Sequence record: PQ805430.1
Source of the DNA: Escherichia phage EK8
Length of the DNA stretch: 64,000 nt
Strand: one strand, 5' to 3'
Shown: positions 1 to 39,279 of the stretch, piece after piece
How the letters are laid out: every line of letters starts with the position of its first letter
Numbering within the stretch: the first letter of the stretch is position 1
The notes under the pieces: generated by a model
The model's input: the letters and a program-made list of their open reading frames with translations, nothing else
The model's database searches: none
What the model was told of the DNA's origin: nothing
Program-made: the position numbers and the translations under genes

Positions 1-79
1 AACGCTTACTCGCACTTGAATCCAAATAATATAAGCCTCTTGGGGGGCTTTTCCATTGAGAATAACAACAGGAGCTACT

Positions 80-2089
80 ATGGAATCTCAATTCCGCCAA
101 CCAAAAAAAGTTATTAATGTCGAAGTTAATAAACAGAGTATTGCTCGTAACTTTGGCATTGGTGATAACGAGGTTTGCTACGCGAAAGCTGGGCAACCTC
201 TAGCAGGCTACAAAGCTATCTACGATAAAGCCAGCCAGCGAGCGTATATGCTTCCTGCTGGCTTGACTGGTACTGTTACGTCTTTTTCCACTGCGGGCGT
301 TCTGACGCATTCTGGTGGCACTGTAGACCTCAGTGCTCTGGCAGTAGAACGAGATGAATACTTTGATCTGAACCAGACGTTTACTTCTGGTGCTACGCTC
401 CAGCGTAAGAATGAGACTATTGGCCTCGGTGCTAAACGTTACCGCTGGGATGGGACACTTCCTAAGTCTATACCATCAGGATCCACCCCTACCTCTACGG
501 GTGGTGTAGGCATTGGAGCATGGATTTCTGTCGGCTATGCGTCATTACGGGAAAATCTTGACCAGAATGAATCTGATATTTCAGGACTGAAAACTACCAC
601 AACTAAAATACAGTCCCAGCACGGAAATAATCATCGGTATAAAGTGCTTTTCGAGTTGCCTTTAAAATTCAGCGCTTACGATGCAGTTTCCGTGGCAAAT
701 GGGTACGAATACTTATACGCAACTGGCCACGCTATTGATCATTCACAAAATGAATTGTGGGTTGTTTATCAGGCGTCTGGAGGTGATACGGCAAACTGGT
801 GGGTGGTATACGACCTTTTGACTCTCACCGAAAAAACATTTTTCAGGGCCGGGAAAAGATGGACAAAATGTTTTTCTCTTATTCATTCTGGTGGAGAAAG
901 ATTCATTTATGCCAGAAGTGCTTCTACTGGTTGGTTGGCTAAGTTTAATGTTACATCACTGCCGGCTTCTGGTACTACAATAACTGAAATGACACCTCCC
1001 AGAGATGAGGTGAAATACATTTACGCTTCTGAATTTAACGGGGAACTTCTTGTTCCTTATGACGCCCCAACTACAAATAGTACAGCGTATTCAAATACCT
1101 TTAATATTCTGGATAAAGATACCTGGGAAATTAAAAGAACTATAAGGATGGATACTATTGGGGCTGGCAACGAATACGGAGCAACGCCTTTACTGTATAA
1201 GAATCAGGGTACTGTAATGTGCGCTGACGGTATAGCTATGGCTTACGGCGGATATTATGACAGTGATAATCCAGGGACGGCAAGTAGTGACCTAAGGGTT
1301 GTTCAGGGTGTTGTTATAAAAAACCCTGATGGAGTGAATATTCTTAATGGATTGTTCGACCCAATCGGTGGAATGTCTATTTTAAACGCATTGGGCAGAT
1401 CAGCAAACAGGTTTGAGACGGAAGGTCTTTATTTTGATTCATACACCGGTAGGCTCACTACGCTTTGGCATTATACGGATGCTGCTGATGGTACGTTCCT
1501 GATTGTTGAGGCTTTTTCTGGTGATGTGAACGCTATCGACATGAAGCCAGCAGCCATAGAGTCGAGGCCACGAGTGCCTGACATTATCTCTCTGTGGCGT
1601 AGTGATTTCCAAAAAAACGTACCGTTAGATCCGAGTACAGGGCAGTCACTCCCGGATGTTATTGATATATGCAAGATGATGATTCGTTATGATCTCAGAA
1701 TGGCGGTATGGTATTCATCCAATTTCAGTGATTTGACATTTAATGGGGATACGTTTAATGGGAGCACTACATTTACATCATCCTCATTTGTAACTCTGGA
1801 AAGAGGAACGAATACTACGTTCTACCTCAGAATAAGAAATTCGGGGATGTATCAGGAATGGTTAATTTTAACCCCTGAGGCCACCCCTTCGTATAGCCAG
1901 TTAGGAATGGTGGCTACTCAGTACAGATTTCAGGGAACAAGCACAGGATTTTTCTGTGGCACCGGAAGCCCTGAGGGCGTTGTAACCGCGTCACCAGGTT
2001 CTATTTATTGCAACCGTTCTGGTGGTGCTTCTGGTAGTGTTTATTTTAAAACATCAGGTTCTGGTAATACGGGGTGGGTAGCTAAATGA
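80..2089 (+). CDS. large virion-associated protein, possible tail fiber/tailspike (function tentative)
   Basis: 670-aa ORF from ATG 80 with AGGAG upstream (track start 56 is TTG); Gly/Ser/Thr/Asn-rich composition; stop overlaps next start (ATGA); lies upstream of lysis cassette; no catalytic motif recognised. Confidence 0.4.
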   Translation: MESQFRQPKKVINVEVNKQSIARNFGIGDNEVCYAKAGQPLAGYKAIYDKASQRAYMLPAGLTGTVTSFSTAGVLTHSGGTVDLSALAVERDEYFDLNQTFTSGATLQRKNETIGLGAKRYRWDGTLPKSIPSGSTPTSTGGVGIGAWISVGYASLRENLDQNESDISGLKTTTTKIQSQHGNNHRYKVLFELPLKFSAYDAVSVANGYEYLYATGHAIDHSQNELWVVYQASGGDTANWWVVYDLLTLTEKTFFRAGKRWTKCFSLIHSGGERFIYARSASTGWLAKFNVTSLPASGTTITEMTPPRDEVKYIYASEFNGELLVPYDAPTTNSTAYSNTFNILDKDTWEIKRTIRMDTIGAGNEYGATPLLYKNQGTVMCADGIAMAYGGYYDSDNPGTASSDLRVVQGVVIKNPDGVNILNGLFDPIGGMSILNALGRSANRFETEGLYFDSYTGRLTTLWHYTDAADGTFLIVEAFSGDVNAIDMKPAAIESRPRVPDIISLWRSDFQKNVPLDPSTGQSLPDVIDICKMMIRYDLRMAVWYSSNFSDLTFNGDTFNGSTTFTSSSFVTLERGTNTTFYLRIRNSGMYQEWLILTPEATPSYSQLGMVATQYRFQGTSTGFFCGTGSPEGVVTASPGSIYCNRSGGASGSVYFKTSGSGNTGWVAK

Positions 2090-2289
2090 TTAAAACAACT
2101 GTTTTTCGTGATAAGAATGGAAGCGTAATCAATATTGGCCCATGGAATTACATGGAGATGCCAATGGTGGATGAAGAAAATGGCGAGCTAACGTGGGTAA
2201 TAAATAACCCACTACCGGAAGGGGCAACTTCAAGCGACGAGGACGTCATTCCTGATGGGCATGGGGGATTTATGGCTGTGAACCCCTAA
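2086..2289 (+). CDS. hypothetical acidic protein (67 aa)
   Basis: ATGA stop/start overlap with upstream gene; no motif recognised. Confidence 0.4.
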   Translation: MIKTTVFRDKNGSVINIGPWNYMEMPMVDEENGELTWVINNPLPEGATSSDEDVIPDGHGGFMAVNP

Positions 2290-2412
2290 TAGTCATCCTC
2301 AGCATCTTTTGACGCTGACCACATGATGACAGCAATGAGCACTATGACGGCAGGGATGCCGATTATCAACAGTGCTGTAAACATATGCGATTCCTTTTTA
2401 ATTGGAGGTTTT

Positions 2413-2889
2413 ATGCAACTTACTAATAATGAGCGAGCGTTTCTAAAAATGCTGACTGTTTCTGAAGGAACCAGTACCAGTAAATACACCAAAAATAACG
2501 GTTATGATGTAATCGTTAATGGTATTGGTGGTGAACCGAAGACCTTTACTGACTACAGCAAGCACCCCAATGTGCTGGTCACTGTAAACAACAAAGGTCT
2601 TAAGTCTACCGCTGCTGGGGCATATCAGATTCTTTATAAATACTGGGTTGCCTACAAAAAGCAGCTTGGACTTAAAGGATTCTATCCCGAAGATCAGGAT
2701 GCAATTGCAATGCAATTGATCAAAGAATGTAAGGCCCGTGACGACATTAACGCTGGTCGTATTGAGGCTGCTATCACTAAGTGTCGCTCCCGCTGGGCAT
2801 CTCTGCCTGGTGCAGGCTACGGCCAGTTTGAGCACAAGATGGATACTCTGGTTTCAGCGTATAAAAAAGCTGGGGGTACTGTAGCGTGA
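2413..2889 (+). CDS. endolysin, lambda R-type lytic transglycosylase
   Basis: 158-aa product from ATG 2413 (GGAGG upstream); blocks GYDVIV, KQLGLK, WASLPGAGYGQFEHK, KKAGGTV match lambda R as recalled. Confidence 0.85.
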   Translation: MQLTNNERAFLKMLTVSEGTSTSKYTKNNGYDVIVNGIGGEPKTFTDYSKHPNVLVTVNNKGLKSTAAGAYQILYKYWVAYKKQLGLKGFYPEDQDAIAMQLIKECKARDDINAGRIEAAITKCRSRWASLPGAGYGQFEHKMDTLVSAYKKAGGTVA

Positions 2890-3122
2890 AGCTGCGACTG
2901 GTACAAAACTGGCGATCAGCATGGAAGTGGTACTCAGTCCACATCATGATTGTAATCGTCGCTTTGCCAGAGATCTGGAGCTATTTTCCGCAGGAGTTCA
3001 AAGACTCCCTGCCTCCAGGTGCGTTGAAGTACGCCATGATGTTCCTGGGCGTATCAGCGATTCTGGCTCGCTTGTTCTCTCAGGAGAAGTCCAAAGATGA
3101 TGAACCTGATAAAGACGTATAA
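2886..3122 (+). CDS. putative holin
   Basis: 78 aa, two hydrophobic helices (YSVHIMIVIVALPEIW; ALKYAMMFLGVSAILARLF), charged C-terminus EKSKDDEPDKDV; start overlaps endolysin stop; sits between endolysin and spanins. Confidence 0.5.
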   Translation: MKLRLVQNWRSAWKWYSVHIMIVIVALPEIWSYFPQEFKDSLPPGALKYAMMFLGVSAILARLFSQEKSKDDEPDKDV

Positions 3123-3594
3123 GGTCTATATCGGTTTAGTCCTGGCCCTGGTTATAATAGCCGGGGCTTGTTGGCTAACGTGGACTGTCACGGATTCACG
3201 GTGGCAGTCGAAATATGATTCATTGGAAACACAGTATGCTGATGCTTCCGCAAAGGCCCAGAATGAAGCCAGGGCAAAGGAGTTGGAATATGACCTCAAT
3301 ATCTCTAAAGCCAATGCTGAGGGGGCTAAACGGGAAGCTGAGGCTAATACTGCTGCCGCTGATGCTAATGCTTCTGTTGTCCGGTTGCACCAACGACTCA
3401 ATACGCTACTTGCCAACACCAGCACCGAAACGACCGGCACTGGACTCAAGGGCAGAACCCCCAACGAAACCATCGTTCTGCTTACCAACGTGTTCCAAAA
3501 ATCTGTCGAACGAAATAGACAACTGGCTGAGTTCGCGGATAAAAGCTGGAACGCAGCTAAACAGTGTTATGACAGCTACAATTCGACACGATAA
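3097..3594 (+). CDS. i-spanin (Rz-like)
   Basis: N-terminal TM helix (IGLVLALVIIAGACWL) followed by Ala/Glu/Lys-rich helical periplasmic domain; carries an out-of-frame lipoprotein ORF. Confidence 0.7.
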   Translation: MMNLIKTYKVYIGLVLALVIIAGACWLTWTVTDSRWQSKYDSLETQYADASAKAQNEARAKELEYDLNISKANAEGAKREAEANTAAADANASVVRLHQRLNTLLANTSTETTGTGLKGRTPNETIVLLTNVFQKSVERNRQLAEFADKSWNAAKQCYDSYNSTR

Positions 3595-3616
3595 TTACGC
3601 TAATTATGTTGTTTAA
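3314..3616 (+). CDS. o-spanin (Rz1-like lipoprotein), overlapped with i-spanin gene
   Basis: ATG 3314 gives MLRGLNGKLRLILLPLMLMLLLSG-C: signal peptide with lipobox LSGC; Pro-rich mature part; starts inside Rz-like gene in another frame and ends 22 nt past it. Confidence 0.6.
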   Translation: MLRGLNGKLRLILLPLMLMLLLSGCTNDSIRYLPTPAPKRPALDSRAEPPTKPSFCLPTCSKNLSNEIDNWLSSRIKAGTQLNSVMTATIRHDNYANYVV

Positions 3617-3678
3617 ATTTTAATTAGTATTAAAATAAGACAGAGTTAACTTAACTATCTCTATAGAGGTTTAAATTT

Positions 3679-4134
3679 ATGGCTAATAAAGGTGTTTATA
3701 AAAAACCGGCACCTATCGGTTCTGGTGTAGTAACCACTGATGACGTTATCGCTCAGGGTTACGATTTCGTTTACCTGAAAATGGGCGGTATGCTCAAAGT
3801 TCAGGAAGCAACCGTTGAAGGCGATCTGACTATCAAAGGCGATACTGCCTATGAGCCTCCGGTTCCCCTGAGTCTGTCCACTGACCTGGCTGCAACTAAA
3901 TCTGTTGCTACCGGTGCCCAGTTGACTCTGACCGTTGCTGCTGCAAACGGCTTTGGTGATTACAGCTACCAGTGGTACAAAGACGGTGCTCCGATCTCTG
4001 GCCGTACTGGTGCGTCATTCTCCAAATCTTCTGCGGAAGCTGGCGATGCAGGTGATTATTACTGCGTGGCGACGGATAAGATGGGTGACACTGTTACCTC
4101 TAAAACTTGTAAAGTTACCGTTACTACTGCGTAA
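3679..4134 (+). CDS. Ig-like domain virion protein (possible capsid decoration protein)
   Basis: 151 aa; C-terminal YQWYKDG...GDAGDYYCVATD...KVTV resembles an Ig (I-set/BIG2-like) domain; AGAGG RBS. Confidence 0.55.
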   Translation: MANKGVYKKPAPIGSGVVTTDDVIAQGYDFVYLKMGGMLKVQEATVEGDLTIKGDTAYEPPVPLSLSTDLAATKSVATGAQLTLTVAAANGFGDYSYQWYKDGAPISGRTGASFSKSSAEAGDAGDYYCVATDKMGDTVTSKTCKVTVTTA

Positions 4135-4164
4135 GTGCTTCTACGTTGCTAAATATTGTAGACT

Positions 4165-4188
4165 AGCCCCCATTCGGGGGCTTTTTTA
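4165..4188 (+). terminator. rho-independent terminator closing the plus-strand lysis/structural unit
   Basis: GCCCCC-ATTC-GGGGGC hairpin followed by TTTTTT. Confidence 0.7.
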
Positions 4189-4440
4189 TAACATCTGCAC
4201 CCGGATATCCCGAACGTAGTGGTATCTTAACAGCCTGGCGGCTGTGTCCAGACTCATGAAGGTTCGAAGGCTATCATCGACACTATAGAGATGAAATTCC
4301 TCACCCTTATTGGGTTTACGAAACGCGATGTAATACTCGCTCATCCCGGTCTGTACGATATAGGCTGTCTTAATCTTAAGTCCGGTGATCTCTTTTTCAT
4401 AGATCCGTTTAAATACGGTCATTCTTCCCCCTTGCGGCAA
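4186..4440 (-). CDS. hypothetical protein
   Basis: ORF at distal end of leftward unit; start uncertain. Confidence 0.35.
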   Translation of the reverse strand: MPQGGRMTVFKRIYEKEITGLKIKTAYIVQTGMSEYYIAFRKPNKGEEFHLYSVDDSLRTFMSLDTAARLLRYHYVRDIRVQML

Positions 4441-4646
4441 CGGGAAAAGAATCCCGATTGACCGCCTACTATGTCTACCCTGCGAGCAGGGAGCACAACA
4501 CGGCTGGCCAGACGACCAGCCTTATCTTTCTGACGTTCGGCGTGAAGTGCCGTCCCAGGGGCGTACATGCGCTGCAATTCACGGGAGCATTTCCGGTGGT
4601 TCCCTACAGCTTTGGGCTTACCACAAATCTGACAGTTGAAGGCCAC
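4419..4646 (-). CDS. hypothetical protein with N-terminal CxxC motif
   Basis: MAFNCQICGKPKAVGNHRKC suggests a small zinc-binding module. Confidence 0.35.
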   Translation of the reverse strand: MAFNCQICGKPKAVGNHRKCSRELQRMYAPGTALHAERQKDKAGRLASRVVLPARRVDIVGGQSGFFSRCRKGEE

Positions 4647-4656
4647 GGTTTACTCC

Positions 4657-4842
4657 CTATGCTGCATTCTCCCGGAGGTCTTTGACCGTTCCGTCTACCA
4701 CCCATTCGTAAGGCACCAGCACTACGGCTGAACCTTTACTCACTGGTTTGATGGCGAACATGCTTTTGCATTGCACGATCCCAGATCCAATGATGGCATC
4801 GGTTGTACGCTTGGAGCGTAACTCAAAGTTGTATTCGAACAT
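4657..4842 (-). CDS. hypothetical protein
   Basis: 61-aa ORF directly downstream of dam. Confidence 0.35.
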   Translation of the reverse strand: MFEYNFELRSKRTTDAIIGSGIVQCKSMFAIKPVSKGSAVVLVPYEWVVDGTVKDLRENAA

Positions 4843-4848
4843 GGAGCC

Positions 4849-5655
4849 TCACTTTAATACGGCGATGATGTCGTTTACGGTTTCACGACTATCGGATTTG
4901 GCACTGATTGCCCGGCGAGCAGGTAGCTCAGTGATAGTAAAGCCAGATGACTCGTATAGGTCAATGATTCTTGGTGCCGAACTGTTTGTGATGACAGTCG
5001 GTACACCTTTCTTCCTGGCTTCCAGTGCCATAGTTACTAATCGCTTTTGGTCACCAAAACCGAAAGTCTTACCAGAATAAGTGGTAAAGCCTTTCTTGCC
5101 AGGCAGCGGTTCATACGGAGGATCGCAGAAGATAACATCACCTTCCTGGGCTAATGCCATATGGGTAGCGAAGTCCACGCAGAACGTCTTAGGCCGCAGG
5201 CCAGCGTTAACGTACTCTTCCAGTTCAGCACGCGGGAAGTAAGGCTGAGCCTTCTTGCCCCACGGCACATTGAACAGGCGATCATTGTTGTAACGGCAGA
5301 GGCCGTTAAAGCAGGTACGGTTAATGACCAGGAAGAACGCTGCCTGTGAGTAGGCTGAATAGCCCTCACTGTTCAGGCGATCCTGGACACGGTAATAATT
5401 CTCTTCCGAGTCCACCCACTTACAAAGCTGTTCAGCTTCGTTGATCAGTCGGTGGCCTTGATGGTTGAGGACGTTGTACAGATTGATGAGATCCGGGTTC
5501 ACGTCATTGATGAGGTTCTCTTCAAAACCAGCATTCATGAATACGGAACCGGCCCCAACAAAGGGTTCAATCAGGCGCTTACCTTTGGGAAGGTGGTGCA
5601 GAATTACAGGCAGTTGGCTATGTTTGCCACCCGCCCATTTCAGGAAGGGTTTCAT
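4849..5655 (-). CDS. dam: DNA adenine methyltransferase (Dam family, GATC-type)
   Basis: N-terminal FLKWAGGK...EPFVGAGSVF (AdoMet binding) and catalytic DPPY motif. Confidence 0.9.
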   Translation of the reverse strand: MKPFLKWAGGKHSQLPVILHHLPKGKRLIEPFVGAGSVFMNAGFEENLINDVNPDLINLYNVLNHQGHRLINEAEQLCKWVDSEENYYRVQDRLNSEGYSAYSQAAFFLVINRTCFNGLCRYNNDRLFNVPWGKKAQPYFPRAELEEYVNAGLRPKTFCVDFATHMALAQEGDVIFCDPPYEPLPGKKGFTTYSGKTFGFGDQKRLVTMALEARKKGVPTVITNSSAPRIIDLYESSGFTITELPARRAISAKSDSRETVNDIIAVLK

Positions 5656-5664
5656 AGATACCTC

Positions 5665-5688
5665 AATAAAAAAGCCCCTTACGGGGCT
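5665..5688 (-). terminator. rho-independent terminator (minus strand)
   Basis: AGCCCC-TTAC-GGGGCT hairpin with A-run on plus strand = U-run for minus transcripts. Confidence 0.55.
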
Positions 5689-6011
5689 GGTGGTGGTTTG
5701 GGTTTACCTAACTTTATACTGATGGCCAGTTCGGATAGCTGGAAAAATCTTCCCCCAAAGTGGGCACAAATTGCCACAAAGATGGGCAGGGTAACCCCTT
5801 TGGGCAAAGACTCTTTGTACTCAGGATAGGCTCCAGATGCCAGGTATCCGGCAAGCAGGCACGCAAGAAATTCGCAAAGCACCCACAAAACTGACGGGTC
5901 AGTTTCTCGCATAAATCTACGACCGACAGAGATAAAGCCACTCATCGCAGAGATGATCAGTACCCCAAACAAATCCCAGTATTGCTGATTTGGTTGGTTA
6001 TCTGGTGGCAT
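5679..6011 (-). CDS. hypothetical membrane protein
   Basis: multiple hydrophobic segments; Pro-rich C-terminus; start uncertain. Confidence 0.4.
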   Translation of the reverse strand: MPPDNQPNQQYWDLFGVLIISAMSGFISVGRRFMRETDPSVLWVLCEFLACLLAGYLASGAYPEYKESLPKGVTLPIFVAICAHFGGRFFQLSELAISIKLGKPKPPPAP

Positions 6012-6069
6012 ACCTACTCCAGGGTTAAAGATAGATGCTAAGAATTTTACATATATTTTGAGATAATAC

Positions 6070-6417
6070 CTAACCCTTACTGACGTTATGCTTGTTAGCT
6101 AACGCATTACGTAAACCTTTACTCATCTTAGCGTCATCATGGCCTTTAAATTCAAGATCCATAAAGATAAGATTAAAGCCTTTAACATTTACCTTAAGTT
6201 CACGTAAGTAGATGGGGCTATCTAAGGTTTCTTGATAAAAAGTTAAATCCTGATCATCCAGCTCTAACTTACCCATTACATACTTATCGTAGCCTTCTGC
6301 TATTTTCTGCTTATTGTAGGTAGGCGGGCTGATAGAAACTTGATCTCCTTCATCGCCATTATCACAAAAGAATCTGGCAGTAAGGAAAACACTAAGTTTA
6401 ATTTTTACTTCTGCCAT
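6070..6417 (-). CDS. hypothetical protein
   Basis: start moved to internal ATG 6417 to avoid 95-nt overlap with upstream gene. Confidence 0.4.
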   Translation of the reverse strand: MAEVKIKLSVFLTARFFCDNGDEGDQVSISPPTYNKQKIAEGYDKYVMGKLELDDQDLTFYQETLDSPIYLRELKVNVKGFNLIFMDLEFKGHDDAKMSKGLRNALANKHNVSKG

Positions 6418-6424
6418 ACTGATC

Positions 6425-6892
6425 TCACTTAAACGTGATGTGGTGCGGAATGAACTGCACCGAACGGTTGAACTGGAAACGTTCACAAAGCTGTTTGAGA
6501 GCAGGGAGATCGTCATCAAACATGTGAACTTCTACCGGGCCGGAATAAACCAGAAGGTTATACACCGTGGAGATTTTCCACTCTTTGGTTTTGCGGTTAT
6601 CGTCTGCACTACGCATATGATAACGGGCATCCGGGAAGCCGGAGTTTTTCAGGTAGATATGGGTGTCCTGCATGACGCTTTCGTCGCGGTTCGAGACAAC
6701 ACCAATTTCATAACCGGCACCGGCCATACAAGCGGCAGTGCGGATAAGACTCAGGTTGAGGCGCTCCATACGGAATGCCTTATGCCAACCCAACCAGGCT
6801 GCATTGTTGTTACGGTTTTCGGGGATGAGAGCACTACGAGCACTACTCGTATTGATTGTCCCATCCAGGTCGAACAGTGCCAGCTTACGCAT
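6425..6892 (-). CDS. HAD-superfamily phosphatase (possible nucleotidase)
   Basis: N-terminal LALFDLDGTI = HAD motif I (DxDGT). Confidence 0.6.
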   Translation of the reverse strand: MRKLALFDLDGTINTSSARSALIPENRNNNAAWLGWHKAFRMERLNLSLIRTAACMAGAGYEIGVVSNRDESVMQDTHIYLKNSGFPDARYHMRSADDNRKTKEWKISTVYNLLVYSGPVEVHMFDDDLPALKQLCERFQFNRSVQFIPHHITFK

Positions 6893-6894
6893 AG

Positions 6895-7056
6895 TTAACC
6901 TCTTGGTTTGCCCGCAGGCAGTTTATCGTTCAGGTTGTGCCGGTTGATGTACTCACGGCGTCCTTCGTGTAATTCCTTCACCTTTGCTTCCGCAATGGCG
7001 ATACGCATGTCGTAATTACGCAGCGTGTCTTCGTGATGCTTTTTCATCTCAGACAT
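6895..7056 (-). CDS. hypothetical small protein
   Basis: ATG 7056 with GAGGT RBS; track ORF extends to 7116 via alternative start. Confidence 0.35.
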   Translation of the reverse strand: MSEMKKHHEDTLRNYDMRIAIAEAKVKELHEGRREYINRHNLNDKLPAGKPRG

Positions 7057-7084
7057 AGTGACCTCAATAAAGCCCCCGAAGGGG

Positions 7085-7270
7085 CTAACCGATAAAGTAA
7101 TGTAGGATTTTGGCACCTACACCGAACATAACAGCAGTGGTGACACACGCTGTCAGGATGGCCATGATTACATCGCCAATCGACCATTCATCAAGTGCAT
7201 TGAAGAAAGTGGATACAGCAAAGAACCAGGCTACTGTCCAGTAGATGCCCCACATCATATTTGGATCCAT
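7085..7270 (-). CDS. small membrane protein
   Basis: 61 aa, two hydrophobic helices; immediately downstream of DNA polymerase. Confidence 0.45.
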   Translation of the reverse strand: MDPNMMWGIYWTVAWFFAVSTFFNALDEWSIGDVIMAILTACVTTAVMFGVGAKILHYFIG

Positions 7271-9982
7271 TTATGCTCCTGTCCACGTACCGTGGGCATC
7301 AACGTATTTAACCCAATCCTTCGGCTTCCACTTTGACGTGTCTTCCGCTGGTTTAGGGCATTTATAGGCTCCGGCCTCCGCCCACTTGATTTTGCGACGG
7401 TAGAGCATTTCAGCAGCTACAGCGTCACGGATCTCCTGCTCACTCAGGTTGTTGTCCAGCGTGATAGGCGTAGCCCAGTTCGGCCAATAGAGGTCGAGGT
7501 TGGCGGGCAACGGTACACGAGGGTCAGCAATCTCAGGCAGACCTTTCCAGGCCATTTCTTCGATCAGATGATCATTGGCGAATTTAACCGCTGTAATGTC
7601 TCTGCGAATAAGCAGGTAGATAGCATCGTGGATGAGTGCTACGGGGAGAATGTCATTACGGAAGGGACTTGCCCACACCTTCTGCATAAAAGCGTTTACA
7701 GCTCGGTTGGTGAGCAATCCGTATGACTGACCACTCACTGCGTTGCCGAGGCTCCGGCCTTCGGCCTCTGCCTCGCGCATCGTGCGTGAGCTTCCCATGA
7801 CGGAACGTTTGAGTAATGGTGTACGGATACGGAGGCCAAAGGCTCCGGTGCCATAACCATCCTCGGTTGCTTTCTGGATCTTGCCCTGTACCCACTTGCC
7901 CGATACTTCGTAGAGCTTGTGGAAGTTTTCTTCGATCCGCTGAGCTTCTTCTTTCGAGAAGCCGCAGTTCTTGACCAGGGTAAGCCAGGTGCCCAGATAT
8001 TGCAGAGCAAACGACACGGGCTTGGACTGACCACGCTCAGCTTTAAACTCTTCCTGGATTCGGTTAATCCCCTCAACGGTGTTCGGCAGGTGAGCAAATT
8101 TCTCCGGCCAGTATGCGTAGGTACGCATGGAGTGAGGGTCATACCCGTCCGTAAAGACTTTAATCTTGTTCGGATCCTGGGTGAGCAGAGCATTGATACG
8201 GTCTTCCAGAGCATTGAAGTCAGCCCCGGCAAAGATCCATCCATCGGGTGCCGAGAAGATGTATTTAATCAGCTTACCGAATGTAGAACCGGATGGGAGG
8301 TTTTGCAGGTTAGGATCTGACGAACTCAACCGCCCGGACAACGTACCGCCGAGGTTAAAGCAACCATGCAGATACCAGCGACCGTTACCTTTGTCGAAGC
8401 CAGCTTCAAACGCCGGAATGAACGACGACAAGATTTTGGAAACCTTGTTGTAGTCGATCAGTGCCCGCAGTAGAGCTTTGGCCTCTTCCGTCTTAGCATG
8501 GAACTCCAGCTTATCGATGGTGTCCGATGCAGCCGATGGCTGTTTGGTTTTGGTACGCTCAATCACCGGTAGCTGCATCACATCGTAAAGAAGGATGGCT
8601 ACCTGTTGATTACTGCCTGGGTTGAATTGAATGTGGCTAAAGTGCTCCAGCGGGTGCTGTTTCGTCTTGAGCTTGGCATTCGCAGCAACCATAGTGTTGG
8701 TCTGAATGATCTTCTCAGCCTGCTTCACGAAGCGGGTGCCACGCATTAACTGAATAGCGGCATTGAGGCCAGCCTCCAGCTTCTGTCTGGCTTCCTTGAT
8801 CTTCTCCGGTATCATTGGCATACCGGTAAGTTCGATTTGCAGGATGGTTTTCAACGACGGCAGGAATTGCTCTTTGTACAGCTTAAGCTGCCCATCCCGT
8901 ACCATGATCGGATAATACTTCTCCTTCACGTACATCGTTGACATGGTGTCAATGACGTTGTACTGGAGCAGTTCCGGCAACGGGATCGCCATGATGTTGT
9001 TGATATCGTCTTTGGCCCAGTTCCCGGCGAACTCGTGAGCCAGGGTTTTCAAGCCCAGTTCATTACCCGCAGTGGAGTTGGTAGCCAGATACGCGATGAG
9101 CTTGGTATCGTCGATGTTCTTGGTTAGGACTTCCAGACCTTCCAACAACCCGGCATTATCCAGAGGATCTGCCATATACAGGTTGTAGATGAGCACCTTG
9201 ATATCGTACCCGCCGTGGTGATAAACAACCTTACCGTTGTACGCTTCGAAGAACTTTTTCAGCTTATGGCGGAAGTAAGGATCGAAGATCCTGACGTTCT
9301 CTCCATTCTGCTGTATCAGGTCACAACGCATCCCGATACCACCAGTGGTATCTTTACTGAATGAGATCGTGCCGATACCGGCTTTAAACGGGTGCAGACT
9401 GAAAGTCTCAAGGTCAACTGCGACCTCATCCCACTTCATGATTTCGGCAAATGCCTTATCAATCTCACTGTCCGTTATCGGATAGTAAGCCCATTTCAGA
9501 ATGTCGTTACCCAGTGCCTCATACGTCCCTTTGAGGCTGGAAGCCAGGGTCTTAATGGATAAGTCCAGCTTTTCAGACACTGCCGGGTTATACGTCAGAG
9601 CCTGATAGTTGATGCCCAGGGTTACCTGGATATCTTCGTAGCCGGGGATTGCACACGGGAGCATGTAGCCTAATTGAGCCTCAGCCTTCGTATTCTTGGT
9701 CAAGACCTTGAAGTAGTTGGAGTCGGCACAATACACATGCTTGGTTTGCAGTTTCTTTAATGCTGGGAGTAGCTGTTCGAGGTACTTCTTGATATGCCCG
9801 ACAGGTGCTTTGTTATTGGGCTGATAGTCCAGCGTGAATACCACTAAATTCTCAGCTTTATAACCACTATCTTCCAGGGGATCAACATAGAAACGTTTTA
9901 TCTCAGATGGCTGCAATGCTGCCTCTTTGATAAGGATCGCCGTTTCATACGTTGGCCTGGTGGCATAAATGATGTGTCTCAT
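7271..9982 (-). CDS. DNA polymerase, family A, with 3'-5' exonuclease domain
   Basis: Exo motif VAVDLETFSL; pol motif A DFNALEDR; motif B RGQSKPVSFALQYLG; motif C LIHDAIYLL. Confidence 0.9.
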   Translation of the reverse strand: MRHIIYATRPTYETAILIKEAALQPSEIKRFYVDPLEDSGYKAENLVVFTLDYQPNNKAPVGHIKKYLEQLLPALKKLQTKHVYCADSNYFKVLTKNTKAEAQLGYMLPCAIPGYEDIQVTLGINYQALTYNPAVSEKLDLSIKTLASSLKGTYEALGNDILKWAYYPITDSEIDKAFAEIMKWDEVAVDLETFSLHPFKAGIGTISFSKDTTGGIGMRCDLIQQNGENVRIFDPYFRHKLKKFFEAYNGKVVYHHGGYDIKVLIYNLYMADPLDNAGLLEGLEVLTKNIDDTKLIAYLATNSTAGNELGLKTLAHEFAGNWAKDDINNIMAIPLPELLQYNVIDTMSTMYVKEKYYPIMVRDGQLKLYKEQFLPSLKTILQIELTGMPMIPEKIKEARQKLEAGLNAAIQLMRGTRFVKQAEKIIQTNTMVAANAKLKTKQHPLEHFSHIQFNPGSNQQVAILLYDVMQLPVIERTKTKQPSAASDTIDKLEFHAKTEEAKALLRALIDYNKVSKILSSFIPAFEAGFDKGNGRWYLHGCFNLGGTLSGRLSSSDPNLQNLPSGSTFGKLIKYIFSAPDGWIFAGADFNALEDRINALLTQDPNKIKVFTDGYDPHSMRTYAYWPEKFAHLPNTVEGINRIQEEFKAERGQSKPVSFALQYLGTWLTLVKNCGFSKEEAQRIEENFHKLYEVSGKWVQGKIQKATEDGYGTGAFGLRIRTPLLKRSVMGSSRTMREAEAEGRSLGNAVSGQSYGLLTNRAVNAFMQKVWASPFRNDILPVALIHDAIYLLIRRDITAVKFANDHLIEEMAWKGLPEIADPRVPLPANLDLYWPNWATPITLDNNLSEQEIRDAVAAEMLYRRKIKWAEAGAYKCPKPAEDTSKWKPKDWVKYVDAHGTWTGA

Positions 9983-10011
9983 ACAGAGCGACCTCTCTCG
10001 TCGATAAGCAT

Positions 10012-10038
10012 GAATAAAAAAGCCAGCCCGAAGGCTGG
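10012..10038 (-). terminator. rho-independent terminator (minus strand) after rIIB-like gene
   Basis: GCCAGCC-CGAA-GGCTGGC hairpin with adjacent A-run on plus strand. Confidence 0.6.
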
Positions 10039-10060
10039 CCAGGGTGATGCAGTTTACAGC

Positions 10061-12145
10061 TTACTTCGCCAGGGTTTCAATCATCGCAGCAACTTCGTCG
10101 CTGACGCCGAGTTTAGCCCAGGATTTCTTGGCCGAACGCTTAATAGCCAGTGCGTCACGCGCAATGCTTTCGTTGATGGTGCTGCCTTTCAGCAGAGCTT
10201 CCATCTGAGCTTTCGGTGAACCTGCTTTCGCTGGCTTAGCCTTTTTCTCAGTCAGGCCGTCAAAGTCATCGACTTTTTTAACGGCGACCGGAGGCTTAGC
10301 AGCATCAGCCGCTTCGGTAACAACTTTACCGATATCGTCGGACAGCCCAAGAGCAGTCCAGCTTTTCTTACTGGCTTTCTTAAACAGAGCCAGTTCGAGA
10401 GCTTTATTGCCCGCACCAGTGCTGGTCGTTGCAGACTTAAACTCAGCATACAGACGCTGAGCAGTCTGAGCTTTGGTTTCACGTTTCACGTCGTCACCTT
10501 TCGGTTTAACCGGGGTCAGGTTTTCAACAGAGTTGGCCTTAACCGGTTCCGGTTTCAGATCCGTTGCTTTCACTTCCGGGGAAGCTGGTGCAACCGGTAC
10601 ATGCTTTTCATCGCCAATCGGATCGATGTTGGTGTTACGGATATCACCTTCGACCAATTCGGCTACCGTGGTATCTACGCCGTCCAGATCGGTGATGGTC
10701 AGTTTGGAACCTTTCTGACCGCCAATCTGTACAGTCTGGATTACCGGGATGTGCTTACCGCGCAGGACTGCGTTGAGGATTTCAGCACCACCGTCGATAG
10801 ATGACAGCTTGCCACCACGGTTAACGTGATTGGCCTGCTTATCGTTCAGCAGAGCGACGATGTGATACCCGGCCACACGCATTTTATTGTTGTTGTACTC
10901 TGGCACCGCGATAACGTCTTCCGGGGCTACTTTACCAACAATGGTAAATTCACCAGAGAAGCCGCTCAGGTAGCTGAGTGCAGCAACATGCAGACCGTTG
11001 GAACAGTCCTGACGACGATCCGGGTCAACCAGAGATTCATCCATAAAGACACGGGAACCCACTTTCTGTTTGACGTTACGGGTGTGACAGTCAACCATGA
11101 TGCCCGCATCTTTTTCGGATTTAACACCGGATGCAGTCAGGCGTTTGTAGATCACGATGGAGCCATCGTCAGCAATCGGCAGATCGCCGTGCTTCATGAA
11201 CTTCATCAGGTCTTCAACGCTGAAACGGCGTTTGTGAACCACCGTACCCAGGCGTTCCAGGAATTTCTGGAAGCCAGTGAAGTCTTTCAGATCCGTGGCT
11301 GCTTTAACTTGTGCAGCCAGGTGCTGAGCTTCCGGGATGATGGTACGGCCACCGTTGGTAACCGCCACTACCGTTTCGTCTTCGGTCAGCTTTTCGTGGA
11401 ACTTCGGATCGGATGCAGGTACTGCTTCCTTCTCCAGAATGTCCAGTCGAGCATTGGCCTCAGCGATTTTCTGCTCATTGGTTTGAACCGGAGCAACCGG
11501 AGCCGGAGCATTGGCAGGCTTGTACGTTACCACACCGCCCAGGCGAGCCAGTTCGGTTACGAACAGCTTAACCCGTGCATCGTTAACATCATACGCCACG
11601 AGAACCGGCAGGCTGCTGGATACCAGGTCATGGGCTTCTTTCAGCCCAGCCCCGGCGACAGCACGGATAGCTTTGATAACAGCAACCTTCTGCCCCTGCG
11701 GGTATGCTTCCAGCATCACGTCATAGTTACCCGGAGGGATAACCACGTCGTCGAACTCAGTCTCTACCGACTCGCCGGGGATAACCCCCAGCTTGATCGG
11801 ATTGACATAAGCAGACGGTGCCGGTTGGGTAACCGCAGGCTGCTCAGGTTCATCACTGAACCAGTCAGCAATACGTTTTTTCGCCACTTTGAAGAAGCGA
11901 ACAACACCATTACTGGCTTTCTCTGCTTCATCAAATTCCGGCTGATGGACAACCGGTATAACCGGTGCCAGGGAGACTTCCACTGCACGAGGGGGAACCT
12001 CGGACAGCGGAGCCTTCACCGTTTCCATAATGCGGGTGACACGAGGATCACCCTGCTTTACGGTTACGGTATCACCGTCCTCGGTAAAGAGGACGATGTT
12101 CGCAGAGTCAACTGACACTGCGATCACCACAACTGAATTTTTCAT
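10061..12145 (-). CDS. rIIB: rIIB-like protein with N-terminal extension and C-terminal tandem repeats
   Basis: central DCSNGLHVAALSYL...VIAVPEYNNNKMRVAGYHIV resembles T4 rIIB core as recalled; adjacent to rIIA-like gene with 4-nt overlap; residues ~140-209 resemble ribosomal L7/L12 CTD; two ~35-aa repeats (KKSW..LG.SD) at C-terminus. Confidence 0.6.
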   Translation of the reverse strand: MKNSVVVIAVSVDSANIVLFTEDGDTVTVKQGDPRVTRIMETVKAPLSEVPPRAVEVSLAPVIPVVHQPEFDEAEKASNGVVRFFKVAKKRIADWFSDEPEQPAVTQPAPSAYVNPIKLGVIPGESVETEFDDVVIPPGNYDVMLEAYPQGQKVAVIKAIRAVAGAGLKEAHDLVSSSLPVLVAYDVNDARVKLFVTELARLGGVVTYKPANAPAPVAPVQTNEQKIAEANARLDILEKEAVPASDPKFHEKLTEDETVVAVTNGGRTIIPEAQHLAAQVKAATDLKDFTGFQKFLERLGTVVHKRRFSVEDLMKFMKHGDLPIADDGSIVIYKRLTASGVKSEKDAGIMVDCHTRNVKQKVGSRVFMDESLVDPDRRQDCSNGLHVAALSYLSGFSGEFTIVGKVAPEDVIAVPEYNNNKMRVAGYHIVALLNDKQANHVNRGGKLSSIDGGAEILNAVLRGKHIPVIQTVQIGGQKGSKLTITDLDGVDTTVAELVEGDIRNTNIDPIGDEKHVPVAPASPEVKATDLKPEPVKANSVENLTPVKPKGDDVKRETKAQTAQRLYAEFKSATTSTGAGNKALELALFKKASKKSWTALGLSDDIGKVVTEAADAAKPPVAVKKVDDFDGLTEKKAKPAKAGSPKAQMEALLKGSTINESIARDALAIKRSAKKSWAKLGVSDEVAAMIETLAK

Positions 12146-33476: not shown

Positions 33477-33610
33477 ATAAAAGTGGTATAGGAAACTTAC
33501 TGTATGATTTCTGACCGTCATACCTAGCGCGAGTAAAAGCTGTAAAGTTTTGGTAACTTATAGCGCGCCTTACTGTCTCAGTGGTGAGTTGTGTAATGTG
33601 TAATTGTGTA

Positions 33611-33641
33611 GAAAAGAAATAGCCTACTCCGAAGAGTAGGC
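33611..33641 (-). terminator. rho-independent terminator (minus strand)
   Basis: 8-bp stem GCCTACTC/GAGTAGGC, CGAA loop, A-run on plus side. Confidence 0.6.
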
Positions 33642-33648
33642 ATTGATG

Positions 33649-33903
33649 TTATGCAGTAGCAGTAGCTGATGCAGCCAGAGCTTTGACTTGGTTATCAAGC
33701 TCAGACTTAGCTGCGTTGTAAATCATCTGGTCTTTGATTTCGATGAGTTCACCGAAGCGTTTAGCTTTGTTCTCTGCTACCTTAGCCAGCTCATCACCAG
33801 CAGTAGCCAGACGATTGACTGCGGTTGCAGTTGTGGTGACAGTGGATACGGTTGCAACTACAGCACCAGTGAGAGCAGCGAACAGACCTTGTGGTTGGGA
33901 CAT
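33649..33903 (-). CDS. hypothetical protein (84 aa, Ala/Thr-rich)
   Basis: stand-alone ORF with its own terminator inside the switch region. Confidence 0.45.
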   Translation of the reverse strand: MSQPQGLFAALTGAVVATVSTVTTTATAVNRLATAGDELAKVAENKAKRFGELIEIKDQMIYNAAKSELDNQVKALAASATATA

Positions 33904-34217
33904 GAGTAATACTCCATAGCTATTGGATTAATGTAAGGGATGAAGGCATCTCACCTTCAAGACTCTGAAGCCTCCCACATCGCAGAGCTACGATTGTGGG
34001 TGCATACATGTGATTAATCTCAAGCAGACAATGTATGAAAACACTGAATGAGATGGATACGTATATCCATATGATGGCCTATGGCCTGAATTGTGTAAGG
34101 CGTAGTAAGAATCCTTTTTCAGCCAGCACTATGGAGGGGGTATCCACCCAAAGCTACAGCCAGAGTAGTAAGTTGAGCACTCGTACCTAAATTAAAAAAT
34201 TTTATAAAAGTTTTCCC

Positions 34218-34418
34218 TTAAACTTTTTTATCTCTATCCAGCGGAGCTATCCTGTTTACCCACCCTTCAAACTTATCCCTGAGTTTATCCATACCGTTCC
34301 AAATACTTTCAAAGATATAAGCAAGCACTAACGCTATACCACCCACCAACCATATCACTAACCAAACTGGCAGCAGAGAGATACGGATAGCCTTGCTCTT
34401 GGTACTCATGCGATACAT
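34218..34418 (-). CDS. small membrane protein
   Basis: 66 aa; hydrophobic LLPVWLVIWLVGGIALVLAYIF. Confidence 0.4.
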   Translation of the reverse strand: MYRMSTKSKAIRISLLPVWLVIWLVGGIALVLAYIFESIWNGMDKLRDKFEGWVNRIAPLDRDKKV

Positions 34419-34506
34419 AAAATTTTCCTCATAAAATTTTTAAAAATTGCCCAACCTTTCGACCCTATTTATACTCTGGCTTAGAACCTATAGGGAGACT
34501 ATATCA

Positions 34507-37114: not shown

Positions 37115-38023
37115 ATGAAATTAAGACTGTCCGACGTATTGGATAACCTTCTGGTCGGAGAGTTCGCACAAACAGGCTGGGCACAAGATGGTGAGTTTTC
37201 CGTAGCGACGGTGAACAAGATTATCATCCTGCTCAATGCTGCATTGGGCGATATCTCTTCTCGGTTCTGGATTAAGAGGAAAGAAGTCTTCCTCCAGACC
37301 TGCCGGGGCCAGACGCTGTACGTGATCGATAACTCGGTCGCAAGTGCCCAGATGAAATTGCAGGGTGGCAACTGTAATTTAACCACCAGCACTGGTGAAG
37401 TCTGGGAAGATGATCTCCAGCAGATCTATGAAGTCTATGACTGCAACGGGAATGAGATGCCTCTCGCGCACGACGTAGGTTCGCCGCACGCCAGTGCAAG
37501 GCGAACCTGCAAGTGCGGGGCACCGATTAGCCCGGAAGAACTGGATGAGATGTGTTACAAATGCCGTAACGCCCGGTTCAGTAAAACCGTGGATAAACCA
37601 GGTACGATTGTTACCCGGCACCATCCGTTTGGTGTACCGAACATTCGTCCGGGCGACTCGTGCTCTATCCAGCTTGCAGCGTATAACACGATCCGTGTAC
37701 CGGATAACCTGACTCCGCAGAAACTGCGTGTCGTGTACCGGGCAACGGCGAAGCGTGTTAAGAAAATTGAAAACAACGGTGTCCCATATGACCCAACTCG
37801 AATTTTTATTGATGTGCCTTACGAGTATCTCCAGGCGATTCTTTTTTATATTGCTTCTCGTAAGTTCAACTCTAATAAATCCGGGGTACAGGGTGGGATG
37901 CACGAAGGGAACAACTACTACCAAAAATACATTGCAGCCTGTACACTACTGCAAGACCAGGGAGCCGGTGTCGAACCGGTAGGGAACTCAGGAAGTAAGT
38001 TCGAACAGAACGGATTTGTATAA
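37115..38023 (+). CDS. hypothetical virion/packaging-associated protein
   Basis: 302 aa; CKCGAPISPEELDEMCYKCRN Cys motif; start 9 nt after terminase stop. Confidence 0.45.
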   Translation: MKLRLSDVLDNLLVGEFAQTGWAQDGEFSVATVNKIIILLNAALGDISSRFWIKRKEVFLQTCRGQTLYVIDNSVASAQMKLQGGNCNLTTSTGEVWEDDLQQIYEVYDCNGNEMPLAHDVGSPHASARRTCKCGAPISPEELDEMCYKCRNARFSKTVDKPGTIVTRHHPFGVPNIRPGDSCSIQLAAYNTIRVPDNLTPQKLRVVYRATAKRVKKIENNGVPYDPTRIFIDVPYEYLQAILFYIASRKFNSNKSGVQGGMHEGNNYYQKYIAACTLLQDQGAGVEPVGNSGSKFEQNGFV

Positions 38024-38054: not shown

Positions 38055-38501
38055 TTAAATGCTACAGGCACCGCTTTCACACTTGTTGTTCTCAGCAAAC
38101 TCAGCCAGTGCAGCTTTGGTCTGAATTTCTTCAAACAGACGCTGTTTCAGGCGATAACCTTCCACCAGCCAGATCTTCTCAATGGCGTTTTCACGGGCAA
38201 CATCGCAGCCAATGGAGAAGTTAAAGTTCTCCGGGCTGGCGCAGGCAGAATGACCAATCACGGTGAAGCCGTTTTCCAGAGTCAGTACGCAGATGGTCAC
38301 CAGCTTATGGGACTCCAGCGTTTCCTGGGTGGTATCCGGGGAATCACTGTTCTGGTTTGCACCGGAGATACCTTCGGCAGCGGTGAAGAAGACTTCGGAT
38401 TTAATCAGGGACTTGATGTAATCCGGGGTAAGACGCGGAGCTTTATCGGCACCAGCAGCAACAATTTTCTGTTCGAGATCAGACATTGGGTTTCTCTTCA
38501 T
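38055..38501 (-). CDS. hypothetical protein (island gene)
   Basis: 148-aa ORF on reverse strand inside late module; alternative start 38486. Confidence 0.45.
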   Translation of the reverse strand: MKRNPMSDLEQKIVAAGADKAPRLTPDYIKSLIKSEVFFTAAEGISGANQNSDSPDTTQETLESHKLVTICVLTLENGFTVIGHSACASPENFNFSIGCDVARENAIEKIWLVEGYRLKQRLFEEIQTKAALAEFAENNKCESGACSI

Positions 38502-38596
38502 AGAGTGGTTTCATGGAATAGCCGAACATGACTGCATTGTCATACTCGACACTGTTGGCAAATACCAGGTACTTCTTGCCACGGCGATCCGTGACT

Positions 38597-38782
38597 TCAT
38601 AAGCATAAGGTATCGGCATAATTTGTACCTTTTCTTACCCGTGAGAGTATACGTCTGCACATGGATTTAGTGATCGGGGAGCTATGCTCAAAGAACATTA
38701 GCTTATTACACATTGTTACCACAGCGAGACAGAATACTCCCTGCTCATCTGGTTTAGTCCGGTAATAACGTTTAATTTTCAT
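38597..38782 (-). CDS. hypothetical small protein (61 aa)
   Basis: start moved to internal ATG 38782 (AAGGA RBS) because the longer track ORF runs through a terminator hairpin. Confidence 0.35.
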   Translation of the reverse strand: MKIKRYYRTKPDEQGVFCLAVVTMCNKLMFFEHSSPITKSMCRRILSRVRKGTNYADTLCL

Positions 38783-38795
38783 AGGTATCCTTAAT

Positions 38796-38820
38796 GGAAA
38801 AAGCCCCTCCAAAGAGGGGC
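38796..38820 (-). terminator. rho-independent terminator (minus strand)
   Basis: GCCCCTC-CAAA-GAGGGGC hairpin with A-run on plus side. Confidence 0.55.
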
Positions 38821-38920
38821 TATTCCAGGCTTGCAGGTGCATAGGCGCTTTTATATTCCCTATGCGGATAACCTTGTCGGGTATTTCCAACCATTACGCA
38901 CCAGGCGTAACGACGGGAAC

Positions 38921-39166
38921 TTATAAGCCAGCCTTGATAACTTCCAACTGGCTTTTCATCATCACCCAGAATACGGCTGGTATCTTCTCGTAACCGAGGT
39001 TTATAAACATGTCACGTATCTGAATGTTATGAATACGTTTGGCTATAAGCAGACTACAACATCTGAGCTTATCGTCAACGGGTTCGTTATACTTTTTTGC
39101 CATAGCAATACAGAGATCTACCGTATCCACGGCATCAAGAAACTCATCAATAGGATCGGGGAACAT
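38921..39166 (-). CDS. hypothetical protein
   Basis: 81-aa ORF upstream of tRNA pair. Confidence 0.45.
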   Translation of the reverse strand: MFPDPIDEFLDAVDTVDLCIAMAKKYNEPVDDKLRCCSLLIAKRIHNIQIRDMFINLGYEKIPAVFWVMMKSQLEVIKAGL

Positions 39167-39198
39167 GATTGTTACTCTGGTTTAGGGAGGGTATGAAT

Positions 39199-39274: not shown

Positions 39275-39279
39275 GAAGG

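Follow-up and report, generated by a model that had tools for sequence, protein, structure and literature searches.

A 64,000-nucleotide (nt) stretch of the genome of Escherichia phage EK8 (PQ805430.1; this whole stretch is hereafter called the window) carries near its left edge a rightward block of adsorption and lysis genes, at positions 80-4134, in which a tail spike gene, an open reading frame (ORF) of 67 amino acids (aa), and genes for a lambda R-type endolysin, a holin, an Rz/Rz1 spanin pair and an immunoglobulin (Ig)-like protein follow one another at close spacing. We conclude, with a probability of roughly 0.9, that this block is a conserved Cbunavirus-type adsorption and lysis island, which occupies an ancestral position, has mosaic contents and has recently imported the distal part of its spike. 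The placement itself is ordinary: a reversed tail-spike/lysis block inside the replication and middle genes is the normal, published layout in the Cbunavirus branch. Such a layout has been described in print for Possum (PMC9569702) and CB1 (PMC6027278), and the lysis and tail genes have been reported as the main departures of CB1 from N4 (PMC6027278).

The initial annotation had described a rightward unit at 56-4190 with an endolysin, a holin, overlapped spanins, a virion-type protein of about 670 aa and an Ig-like protein. All of these components were confirmed when gene identities were assigned from the ORF list combined with Pfam and PHROGs searches; the virion-type protein is a 669-aa spike, and the lambda R-type label of the endolysin was correct. 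The 67-aa ORF is an addition to that description. The features of the island in the window are as follows:

1-29, plus strand: last bases (3') of an upstream tail-spike gene that the left edge of the window truncates; the upstream spike stop of Kc283 and SABI aligns at 27-29
33-74, plus strand: inter-spike junction, consisting of a weak hairpin (33-50) and then CCATTGAGAATAACAACAGGAG with a ribosome-binding site
80-2089, plus strand: chimeric tail spike/receptor-binding protein, 669 aa; Pfam Tail_spike_N (PF18668), E = 2e-19
2086-2289, plus strand: 67-aa acidic companion ORF; phrog_33685; ATGA stop/start overlap with the spike gene
2413-2889, plus strand: lambda R-type endolysin (soluble lytic transglycosylase), 158 aa; full-length match to 1AM7/3D3D
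2886-3122, plus strand: predicted holin, 78 aa; PF25612/DUF7940, E = 5e-21; phrog_1356; GTG start overlapping the endolysin stop
3097-3594, plus strand: inner-membrane spanin (i-spanin, Rz-like), 165 aa; DUF2514, E = 1e-18; phrog_312, E = 8e-40; N-terminal membrane helix YKVYIGLVLALVIIAGACWLTW
3314-3616, plus strand, +1 frame: outer-membrane spanin (o-spanin, Rz1-like lipoprotein), 100 aa; phrog_11621, E = 3e-17
3679-4134, plus strand: Ig-like virion protein, 151 aa; Ig_2 (E = 2e-9), Ig_3 and I-set; Hoc-like phrog_4069, E = 3e-28
4165-4189, plus strand: intrinsic terminator, a 7-bp stem with 6 G-C pairs and then TTTTTTAT; closes the rightward unit

The description of the block as a separate unit holds for the rightward orientation of its genes but not for its extent or setting: the island is a late-strand block reversed inside the middle (replication) module, not merely lying beside it, and it is truncated at the left edge of the window, because bases 1-29 end another spike gene. 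On the right, the flank is seen directly in the window, where the leftward genes start at 4186 with 3 small ORFs and continue with those for Dam methylase, DNA polymerase, rIIB and rIIA, the arrangement found in Cbunavirus. The proposed convergence of the unit on leftward replication genes is thereby borne out, with the terminator lying at the meeting point; its hairpin (4165-4182) has a folding energy of −19.5 kcal/mol (z = −5.0) and a T-run on the plus strand only. In the annotated maps of CB1 and Kc283 (both Cbunavirus), SABI (an unclassified Enterobacter phage), and Klebsiella phage P184 and Erwinia phage MIF8 (both Efbeekayvirus), the reversed block lies between thyX and the small ORFs/Dam/DNA polymerase genes, and the Litunavirus LIT1, sequenced in 2010, has a reversed tail-fiber block inside its middle genes, with an Rz of phrog_312 at the end. 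Since CB1, Kc283, SABI, P184 and MIF8 share the arrangement and that of LIT1 is comparable, the placement cannot be regarded as a peculiarity of this phage.

The full island is visible in Logan contig L012 (SRR31716257; 71,959 bp), which belongs to the same species, with 96.3% nt identity over window positions 2412-10207. There, thyX (on the opposite strand) is followed by genes for a 239-aa Cap_depo adaptor, a 1062-aa endosialidase-like spike and a 683-aa spike, and then by the 67-aa ORF and the endolysin, holin, Rz and Ig protein genes, with the downstream leftward genes sized as in the window. Across relatives, 1 to 3 further tail genes lie upstream, and the first genes of the island encode an adaptor "tail protein" and another one or two spikes; the window holds the right-hand two thirds of this conserved adsorption and lysis island. 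Kc283 and SABI have the inter-spike junction in almost unchanged form, and an intergenic region of the 159-kb Shigella phage ChubbyThor matches it at 95% identity; the junction may be a recombination or expression signal common to tail-spike genes of unrelated phage families. Its hairpin at 33-50 was considered as a terminator and rejected, being no better than shuffled sequence (−8.7 kcal/mol).

Membership in the Schitoviridae is indicated by a giant virion-packaged RNA polymerase gene and by N4 core genes in conserved order. When every window ORF was compared with CB1, all 64 kb proved collinear with this Cbunavirus genome, in agreement with the earlier suggestion of a Schitoviridae lineage different from that of N4. 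The neighbors of the window found by megablast are the Cbunavirus phages CB1, CB3, CB4, Nepra, phiA41/A38, Possum/Horatius and Kc283, to which the late region shows ~83% nt identity over 85% coverage, and in which the island has the same locus, orientation and gene order. By contrast with these phages, the window has the extra 67-aa ORF, and it has 1 Ig-like gene as opposed to 2 in Kc283 and SABI. The Efbeekayvirus phages P184 and MIF8 likewise carry a reversed adaptor/fiber and lysis block in the middle region with a DUF7940 holin (and, in P184, a small ORF after the last fiber gene), but they have a PF00959 lysozyme in place of the lambda R-type endolysin, and ribonucleotide reductase genes adjoin their thyX. 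In LIT1, the block (gp48-56) shares the reversed fiber genes and the phrog_312 Rz, whereas its flanks and contents differ: it has neither a recognizable lambda-type endolysin nor an Ig-like gene. At the species level, the phage collection contains no match to the window, and the genome, of which the window represents all but ~12 kb, appears from its sequence to be a new species-level relative of Cbunavirus.

The lysis cassette is native to this lineage, because its proteins are at or above core-gene identity and lie in the best-conserved part of the window. The endolysin is ~98% identical to that of CB1 (98.7% aa identity to CB1/Nepra), the holin 94% and the i-spanin 92%, the lysis proteins thus spanning 92-98%, compared with 85-94% for the core proteins overall (DNA polymerase 91%, terminase 91%, portal 91%, major capsid protein 93% and virion RNA polymerase (vRNAP) 85%). 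Consistently, the bin 2001-4000 has the highest nt identity to CB1 of all 2-kb bins (90%, versus 70-82% elsewhere). These identities contradict the proposal in the initial annotation that a foreign lysis module had been acquired; its companion proposal, a foreign host-range module, stands for positions 555-2367 only, the N-terminus of the spike being native.

This imported segment comprises residues ~159-669 of the spike, the 67-aa ORF and ~80 nt of spacer. Its DNA shares 94% identity with a lambda-like contig (L013), in which a lambda GpJ-like gene stands before it, and 76.5% identity with a prophage of Citrobacter braakii in which these two genes are likewise paired; it has no DNA similarity to CB1 or Kc283. 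On the left, the segment joins native sequence where the Tail_spike_N domain ends. On the right, the match to L013 runs as far as 2367 and that to CB1/Nepra begins again at ~2393, immediately ahead of the ribosome-binding site of the endolysin gene; CB1, Kc283 and SABI have a terminator hairpin in front of this gene, which the window has lost at the recombination junction. The spike N-terminal anchor (approximately residues 1-158) is the lineage's own, with identities of 87% to SABI, 78% to Kc283 and 34% to CB1, and the distal stem, beta-propeller and C-terminal domains (~159-669) are imported. By these comparisons, the distal spike and the 67-aa ORF are a recent acquisition from a lambda-like phage or prophage and the sole foreign part of the block. 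Endolysin families vary as well, with GH108 plus PG_binding_3 in N4, PF00959 in P184 and MIF8, and the lambda R-type in the window, CB1, Kc283 and SABI as well as in some Klebsiella N4-like phages. Collectively, the position of the island is ancestral to the lineage and its contents are mosaic, and in different members one endolysin type has been substituted for another at the same place.

Related sequences also differ in the spacer that separates the 67-aa ORF from the endolysin gene. In L012 (12290-12320) it holds CTGCGTATAGAAACAG, a degraded copy of the LexA-box-like palindrome CTGTATATAAAAACAG; the same LexA-box-like motif stands before the next gene in a Citrobacter prophage (L011, 8225-8250), and the spacer of the window is a different one. 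The remnant in L012 has the appearance of a trace left by an earlier transfer out of a temperate phage.

The spike ORF delimited mechanically runs from TTG-56 to 2089 (677 aa). The true start is ATG-80, because it is preceded by an AGGAG ribosome-binding site and because PHROG tail-spike profiles align from residue 9. We modeled the protein with AlphaFold2 on 18 homologues, at medium confidence (mean predicted local distance difference test score of 71, with residues 611-669 poor). The first 150 residues of the model match tail spike proteins (TSPs) TSP1/3/4 of CBA120 and gp63.1 of G7C in Foldseek (5w6f, 4oj6, 4qnl; E~1e-16, 51-57% identity). Through this domain, the spike is comparable to the branched tail-spike systems CBA120 TSP1-4 and G7C gp63.1-gp66, but a beta-helix depolymerase body is missing: no right-handed beta-helix is present in the spike model, and no pectate-lyase or beta-helix Pfam match was obtained. 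Instead, the modeled body would consist of a helical coiled-coil stem (153-181), propeller-like beta blades and small C-terminal domains. Its best Foldseek matches are receptor-binding proteins of Staphylococcus phages phi11, 80alpha, NF5 and P68 (E~1e-11), followed by generic beta-propellers of the WD40 type. The body shares the stem-propeller-tower match with phi11 Gp45-type proteins, although sequence identity is just 10-27%; by tblastn, the spike is 27% identical to a Staphylococcus phage SA2 protein (E = 1e-18) and to one of Erwinia phage UCB24. Lacking a beta-helix, the modeled protein would be better described as a receptor-binding fiber with a TSP-type anchor, "spike" being a positional name. 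Homologues of the body sit behind 3 N-terminal anchor options, namely, Tail_spike_N, the P22 head-binding domain (PF09008) or none, and the nearest come from records of Citrobacter braakii and Atlantibacter hermannii; a look-up in public assemblies returned no identical spike protein. The distal body is unrelated to the SGNH esterase of CB1 or the colanidase of Kc283.

The 67-aa ORF, whose ATGA overlap suggests translational coupling to the spike gene, has homologues in L011, L012 and L013 and in several families of Klebsiella and E. coli phages, each immediately behind a tail-fiber/spike gene. It always lies 0-9 nt past a fiber/spike gene that ends in the same 39-residue motif (GTGSPEGVVTASPGSIY..SGSGNTGWV.K), located at 1973-2089 in the window. 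The motif and the ORF occur together across at least 4 morphotype/family groups (KOX1-like siphoviruses, ~157-kb myoviruses, ~40-kb podoviruses, and the N4-like phages IME11/PGN829.1) and also in prophages; the motif without the ORF is present in Acinetobacter, Gordonia, Pseudomonas and Ralstonia phages. The product of the ORF may be a tip chaperone or adaptor.

A more general proposal, which we put forward tentatively and consider somewhat doubtful as a whole, is that the distal spike body and its coupled 67-aa partner form a mobile two-gene host-range cassette that is passed between virulent phages (N4-like podoviruses) and temperate elements (lambda-like siphoviruses or prophages of Citrobacter and Atlantibacter). 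In this proposal, the body would have a stem-propeller-tower fold as in Staphylococcus phages, and the 67-aa protein would be a previously undescribed tip chaperone or adaptor tied to the 39-residue C-terminal motif. The transfer of the cassette is itself observed; the fold would follow from the structural model, and the chaperone role is putative.

The endolysin aligns with lambda lysozyme (1AM7/3D3D) at E = 5e-50, residues 2-157 against 3-153, with the catalytic-Glu motif SEGT aligned, and its transglycosylase activity is predicted from the homology to lambda R. The gene starts at ATG-2413, with GGAGG 5 nt before it, and the encoded N-terminus, MQLTNNERAF, is hydrophilic. An extension from the in-frame ATG-2323 that would provide a signal-arrest-release (SAR) domain was rejected, given the GGAGG before ATG-2413 and the length of the homologues (158 aa); the extension also falls in the non-conserved imported spacer. 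Rejected as a gene, too, was an antisense 32-aa hydrophobic ORF in this spacer (MFTALLIIGIPAVIVLIAVIMWSASKDAEDDY; approximately 2289-2387, minus strand; AAGGA ribosome-binding site), which has an in-frame stop in the homologous L013 stretch, is absent from L012, and is probably a remnant or a chance ORF.

The 78-aa protein contains, by eye, 2 hydrophobic stretches (WYSVHIMIVIVALPEIWSYF and ALKYAMMFLGVSAILARLF) and a charged C-terminal tail (SQEKSKDDEPDKDV), features of the class II type, and is predicted to act as the holin that releases the soluble endolysin. Its family, PF25612, is also represented in Kc283, P184, MIF8 and, as gp62, in N4; the protein is just 49% identical to its counterparts in Kc283 and SABI and a distant homologue of N4 gp62 (27% identity, pairwise E = 3e-8). 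The endolysin partnered with gp62 in N4 has been described as of the SAR type and pinholin dependent (PMC6027278). The i-spanin falls into the same PHROG as LIT1 gp48. The o-spanin, starting at ATG-3314, combines a signal and lipobox (MLRGLNGKLRLILLPLMLMLLLSG followed by C, that is, LLSG followed by C) with a proline-rich mature part, and the Rz/Rz1 pair is of the overlapped type, because Rz1 starts inside Rz and ends 22 nt past the Rz stop. A lambda-type endolysin, a class II holin and overlapping Rz/Rz1 have been described for CB1 (PMC6027278). Compared with the S-R-Rz/Rz1 cassette of lambda, the likeness lies in the endolysin, a full-length homologue of lambda R, and in the two-component spanin with Rz1 in the +1 frame. 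By contrast, the order here is endolysin, holin and spanin, the holin is a two-helix DUF7940 protein rather than the three-helix lambda S, and Rz1 is overlapped here and embedded in lambda.

The Ig-like protein is 52% identical to CB1 and 87% to Kc283, and shows weak similarity to the Ig domain of the N4 decoration protein gp17 (E = 8e-4). Its CB1 orthologue, CB1_57, termed a tail protein, was detected in virions by mass spectrometry, along with CB1_61 and 62 (PMC6027278). The protein in the window is a putative Hoc-like decoration or tail accessory protein.

For synteny with N4, all 72 N4 proteins were searched against the window by tblastn. The core proteins gp15/16, 24, 33, 34, 39, 46, 50, 53, 55-57, 59, 68 and 69 matched in order, with the order kept but circularly permuted. 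Other features of the window are as follows:

4849-5655, minus strand: Dam methylase
5679-6011, minus strand: second membrane protein annotated as "holin", 110 aa, multi-helix; phrog_6854; no Pfam match; adjoins dam
7271-9982, minus strand: DNA polymerase
27 kb down to 7 kb, minus strand: RNAPII, gp24, rIIA/B and DNA polymerase, matched with N4 proteins
34.5-62.3 kb, plus strand: gp69, terminase, portal, major capsid protein, gp53 and vRNAP, matched with N4 proteins
37115-38023: gp67-like structural gene
38055-38501, minus strand: gp48/49-like gene (PF13876)
Within 38055-40294, minus strand: DUF7740 gene
39199-39355, minus strand: tRNA-Gln and tRNA-Asn
39746-40294, minus strand: MazG-like pyrophosphatase gene
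51226-62316, plus strand: vRNAP, a 3696-aa ORF matching N4 gp50
Right end of the window, minus strand: gp46-like gene, matched with N4 proteins

N4 has its spanin gp60, GH108 SAR endolysin gp61, holin gp62, gp64, sheath/receptor-binding protein gp65 and appendage gp66 between portal gp59 and terminase gp68, so that the earlier placement of the N4 lysin between portal and terminase was accurate (gp60-62). Among N4 gp60-67, the holin gp62 alone was matched in the window by tblastn, and the match lies inside the island; N4 gp60 has no detectable similarity to the window Rz. In both phages, adsorption and lysis genes are adjacent and on the late strand, and the holins are distant homologues. Their endolysins belong to different families, neither the spanins nor any of the adsorption proteins are related, and the holin precedes the endolysin in N4. 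In the window, the interval between terminase and portal holds the gp67-like structural gene and then a leftward block (38055-40294). This block mirrors the island, consisting of middle-strand genes within the late module, and the same feature is found in CB1 and LIT1.

The join of the genome ends lies inside the window, at approximately 33600-34450 (ends near 33.9-34.0 kb): the CB1 terminal-repeat gene gp01 maps to 33649-33903 on the minus strand, and CB1 right-end sequence lies just beyond, at 34035-34190. Only 1 copy of the terminal repeat is present in the window; with the ends joined, this identifies the source record as an assembly, circularly permuted or collapsed, and not as the packaged linear form. 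An Rfam search of the whole window at the gathering threshold returned the 2 tRNAs and nothing else. In a separate record, PQ898399.1 (Enterobacter phage SonariX; 248,734 bp), we noticed an apparently complete SABI-like N4-type region with coordinates mirroring SABI, which points to a concatenated or mixed assembly.

The island would, on the model of LUZ7 and LIT1, be read late, by the host sigma-70 RNA polymerase from weak promoters, with rightward transcription stopping at the 4165-4189 terminator. The Crick-strand genes of LUZ7 are without exception strictly late and read by the host RNA polymerase, and in both LIT1 and LUZ7, middle transcripts run antisense through late cassettes and have been proposed to silence premature late expression (PMC9163698). 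Leftward middle-stage transcripts of the window, meeting no T-run terminator, would probably likewise run antisense through the island earlier in infection. The adaptor and spikes would form a branched adsorption apparatus, as suggested by CB1 proteomics and by the G7C/CBA120 and Possum models; the spike would dock via its CBA120/G7C-type N-terminal domain and bind the host through the imported stem-propeller body. CB1 proteomics also suggests that the Ig protein is built into the virion. At lysis, as known lysis biology would predict, the two-helix holin would permeabilize the inner membrane and release the soluble lambda R-type transglycosylase, after which the Rz/Rz1 spanin complex would disrupt the outer membrane.

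Several points weigh against the interpretation of the block as a conserved, ancestrally placed island with this mode of expression. The left end of the island and the thyX flank lie outside the window, and the embedding in this genome is deduced from L012 and other relatives. One-way nt similarity of the whole 64-kb window to CB1 is ~65%, with 82% aligned, and the genus criterion of the International Committee on Taxonomy of Viruses is at least 70% genome-wide nt similarity to members; formal membership of the genome in Cbunavirus would therefore be borderline. The phrog_6854 protein is a candidate holin outside the cassette, and either protein could be the functional holin; phrog_6854 proteins are also kept in CB1 (gp51), P184 (gp55) and LIT1 (gp45). 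A scan of positions 1-5000 for sigma-70-like promoters was at chance (9 found versus 8.4 expected), and the aligned intergenic regions before the endolysin and Ig-like genes contain conserved sequence and nothing callable as a promoter. Finally, the late timing would follow from LUZ7 and LIT1, which are Pseudomonas phages of another subfamily.

Recent acquisition of the whole block, lysis cassette included, by this phage from an unrelated phage would account for an endolysin that is non-orthologous to N4 gp61 (lambda R-type versus GH108) and has its nearest relatives outside the Schitoviridae in Salmonella and E. coli siphoviruses (~61% identity), for the slightly lower G+C content of 1-4000 (0.44-0.46) than of most of the window, and for the distal spike, which is genuinely foreign. 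We nevertheless consider it very improbable: the block occupies the same locus with the same flanks in at least 2 genera and SABI, with a comparable block in LIT1; the lysis proteins are at least as close to CB1 as the DNA polymerase, terminase and portal (92-98% versus 91%); the holin shares its Pfam family with N4 gp62; and the foreign DNA is confined to 555-2367 with sharp junctions. Even less credible, to the point of being negligible, is an artifact of assembly or permutation, that is, a mis-joined or arbitrarily opened contig that merely simulates relocation. Set against the maps of N4 and CB1, the window does show circular permutation, and it has a single terminal-repeat copy, but permutation shifts the start of a record and leaves gene order intact, the terminator stands exactly at the convergence point, and the junction of the Ig gene, small ORFs, dam and DNA polymerase recurs gene for gene in the independently sequenced CB1, Kc283, SABI, P184, MIF8 and L012.

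A conserved island of ancestral position and mosaic contents is compatible with, rather than opposed to, a further reading, in which the reversed placement is functional and adaptive instead of a frozen accident, antisense middle transcripts restraining premature expression of holin and endolysin. The antisense read-through of late cassettes in LIT1 and LUZ7 (PMC9163698) argues for this reading, as do the T-run of the 4165-4182 hairpin, which is on the plus strand only and would not obviously stop leftward transcripts, and the retention of the arrangement across at least 3 genera. However, N4 manages without such a placement, and the conservation could reflect descent alone; the adaptive reading is possible, and we do not favor it.

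The reversed lysis/host-range block can thus serve as a quick lineage marker for Cbunavirus-type N4-like phages rather than constituting a discovery. The island also illustrates cleanly where recombination cuts in such blocks, namely, where the Tail_spike_N domain ends and at the ribosome-binding site of the endolysin gene, information that is useful for receptor-binding-protein engineering and host prediction. Across the Schitoviridae, the DUF7940 holin has been retained while the endolysin has been replaced (GH108, PF00959 and lambda R-type), which raises the question of how one holin family serves both SAR-type and soluble endolysins.

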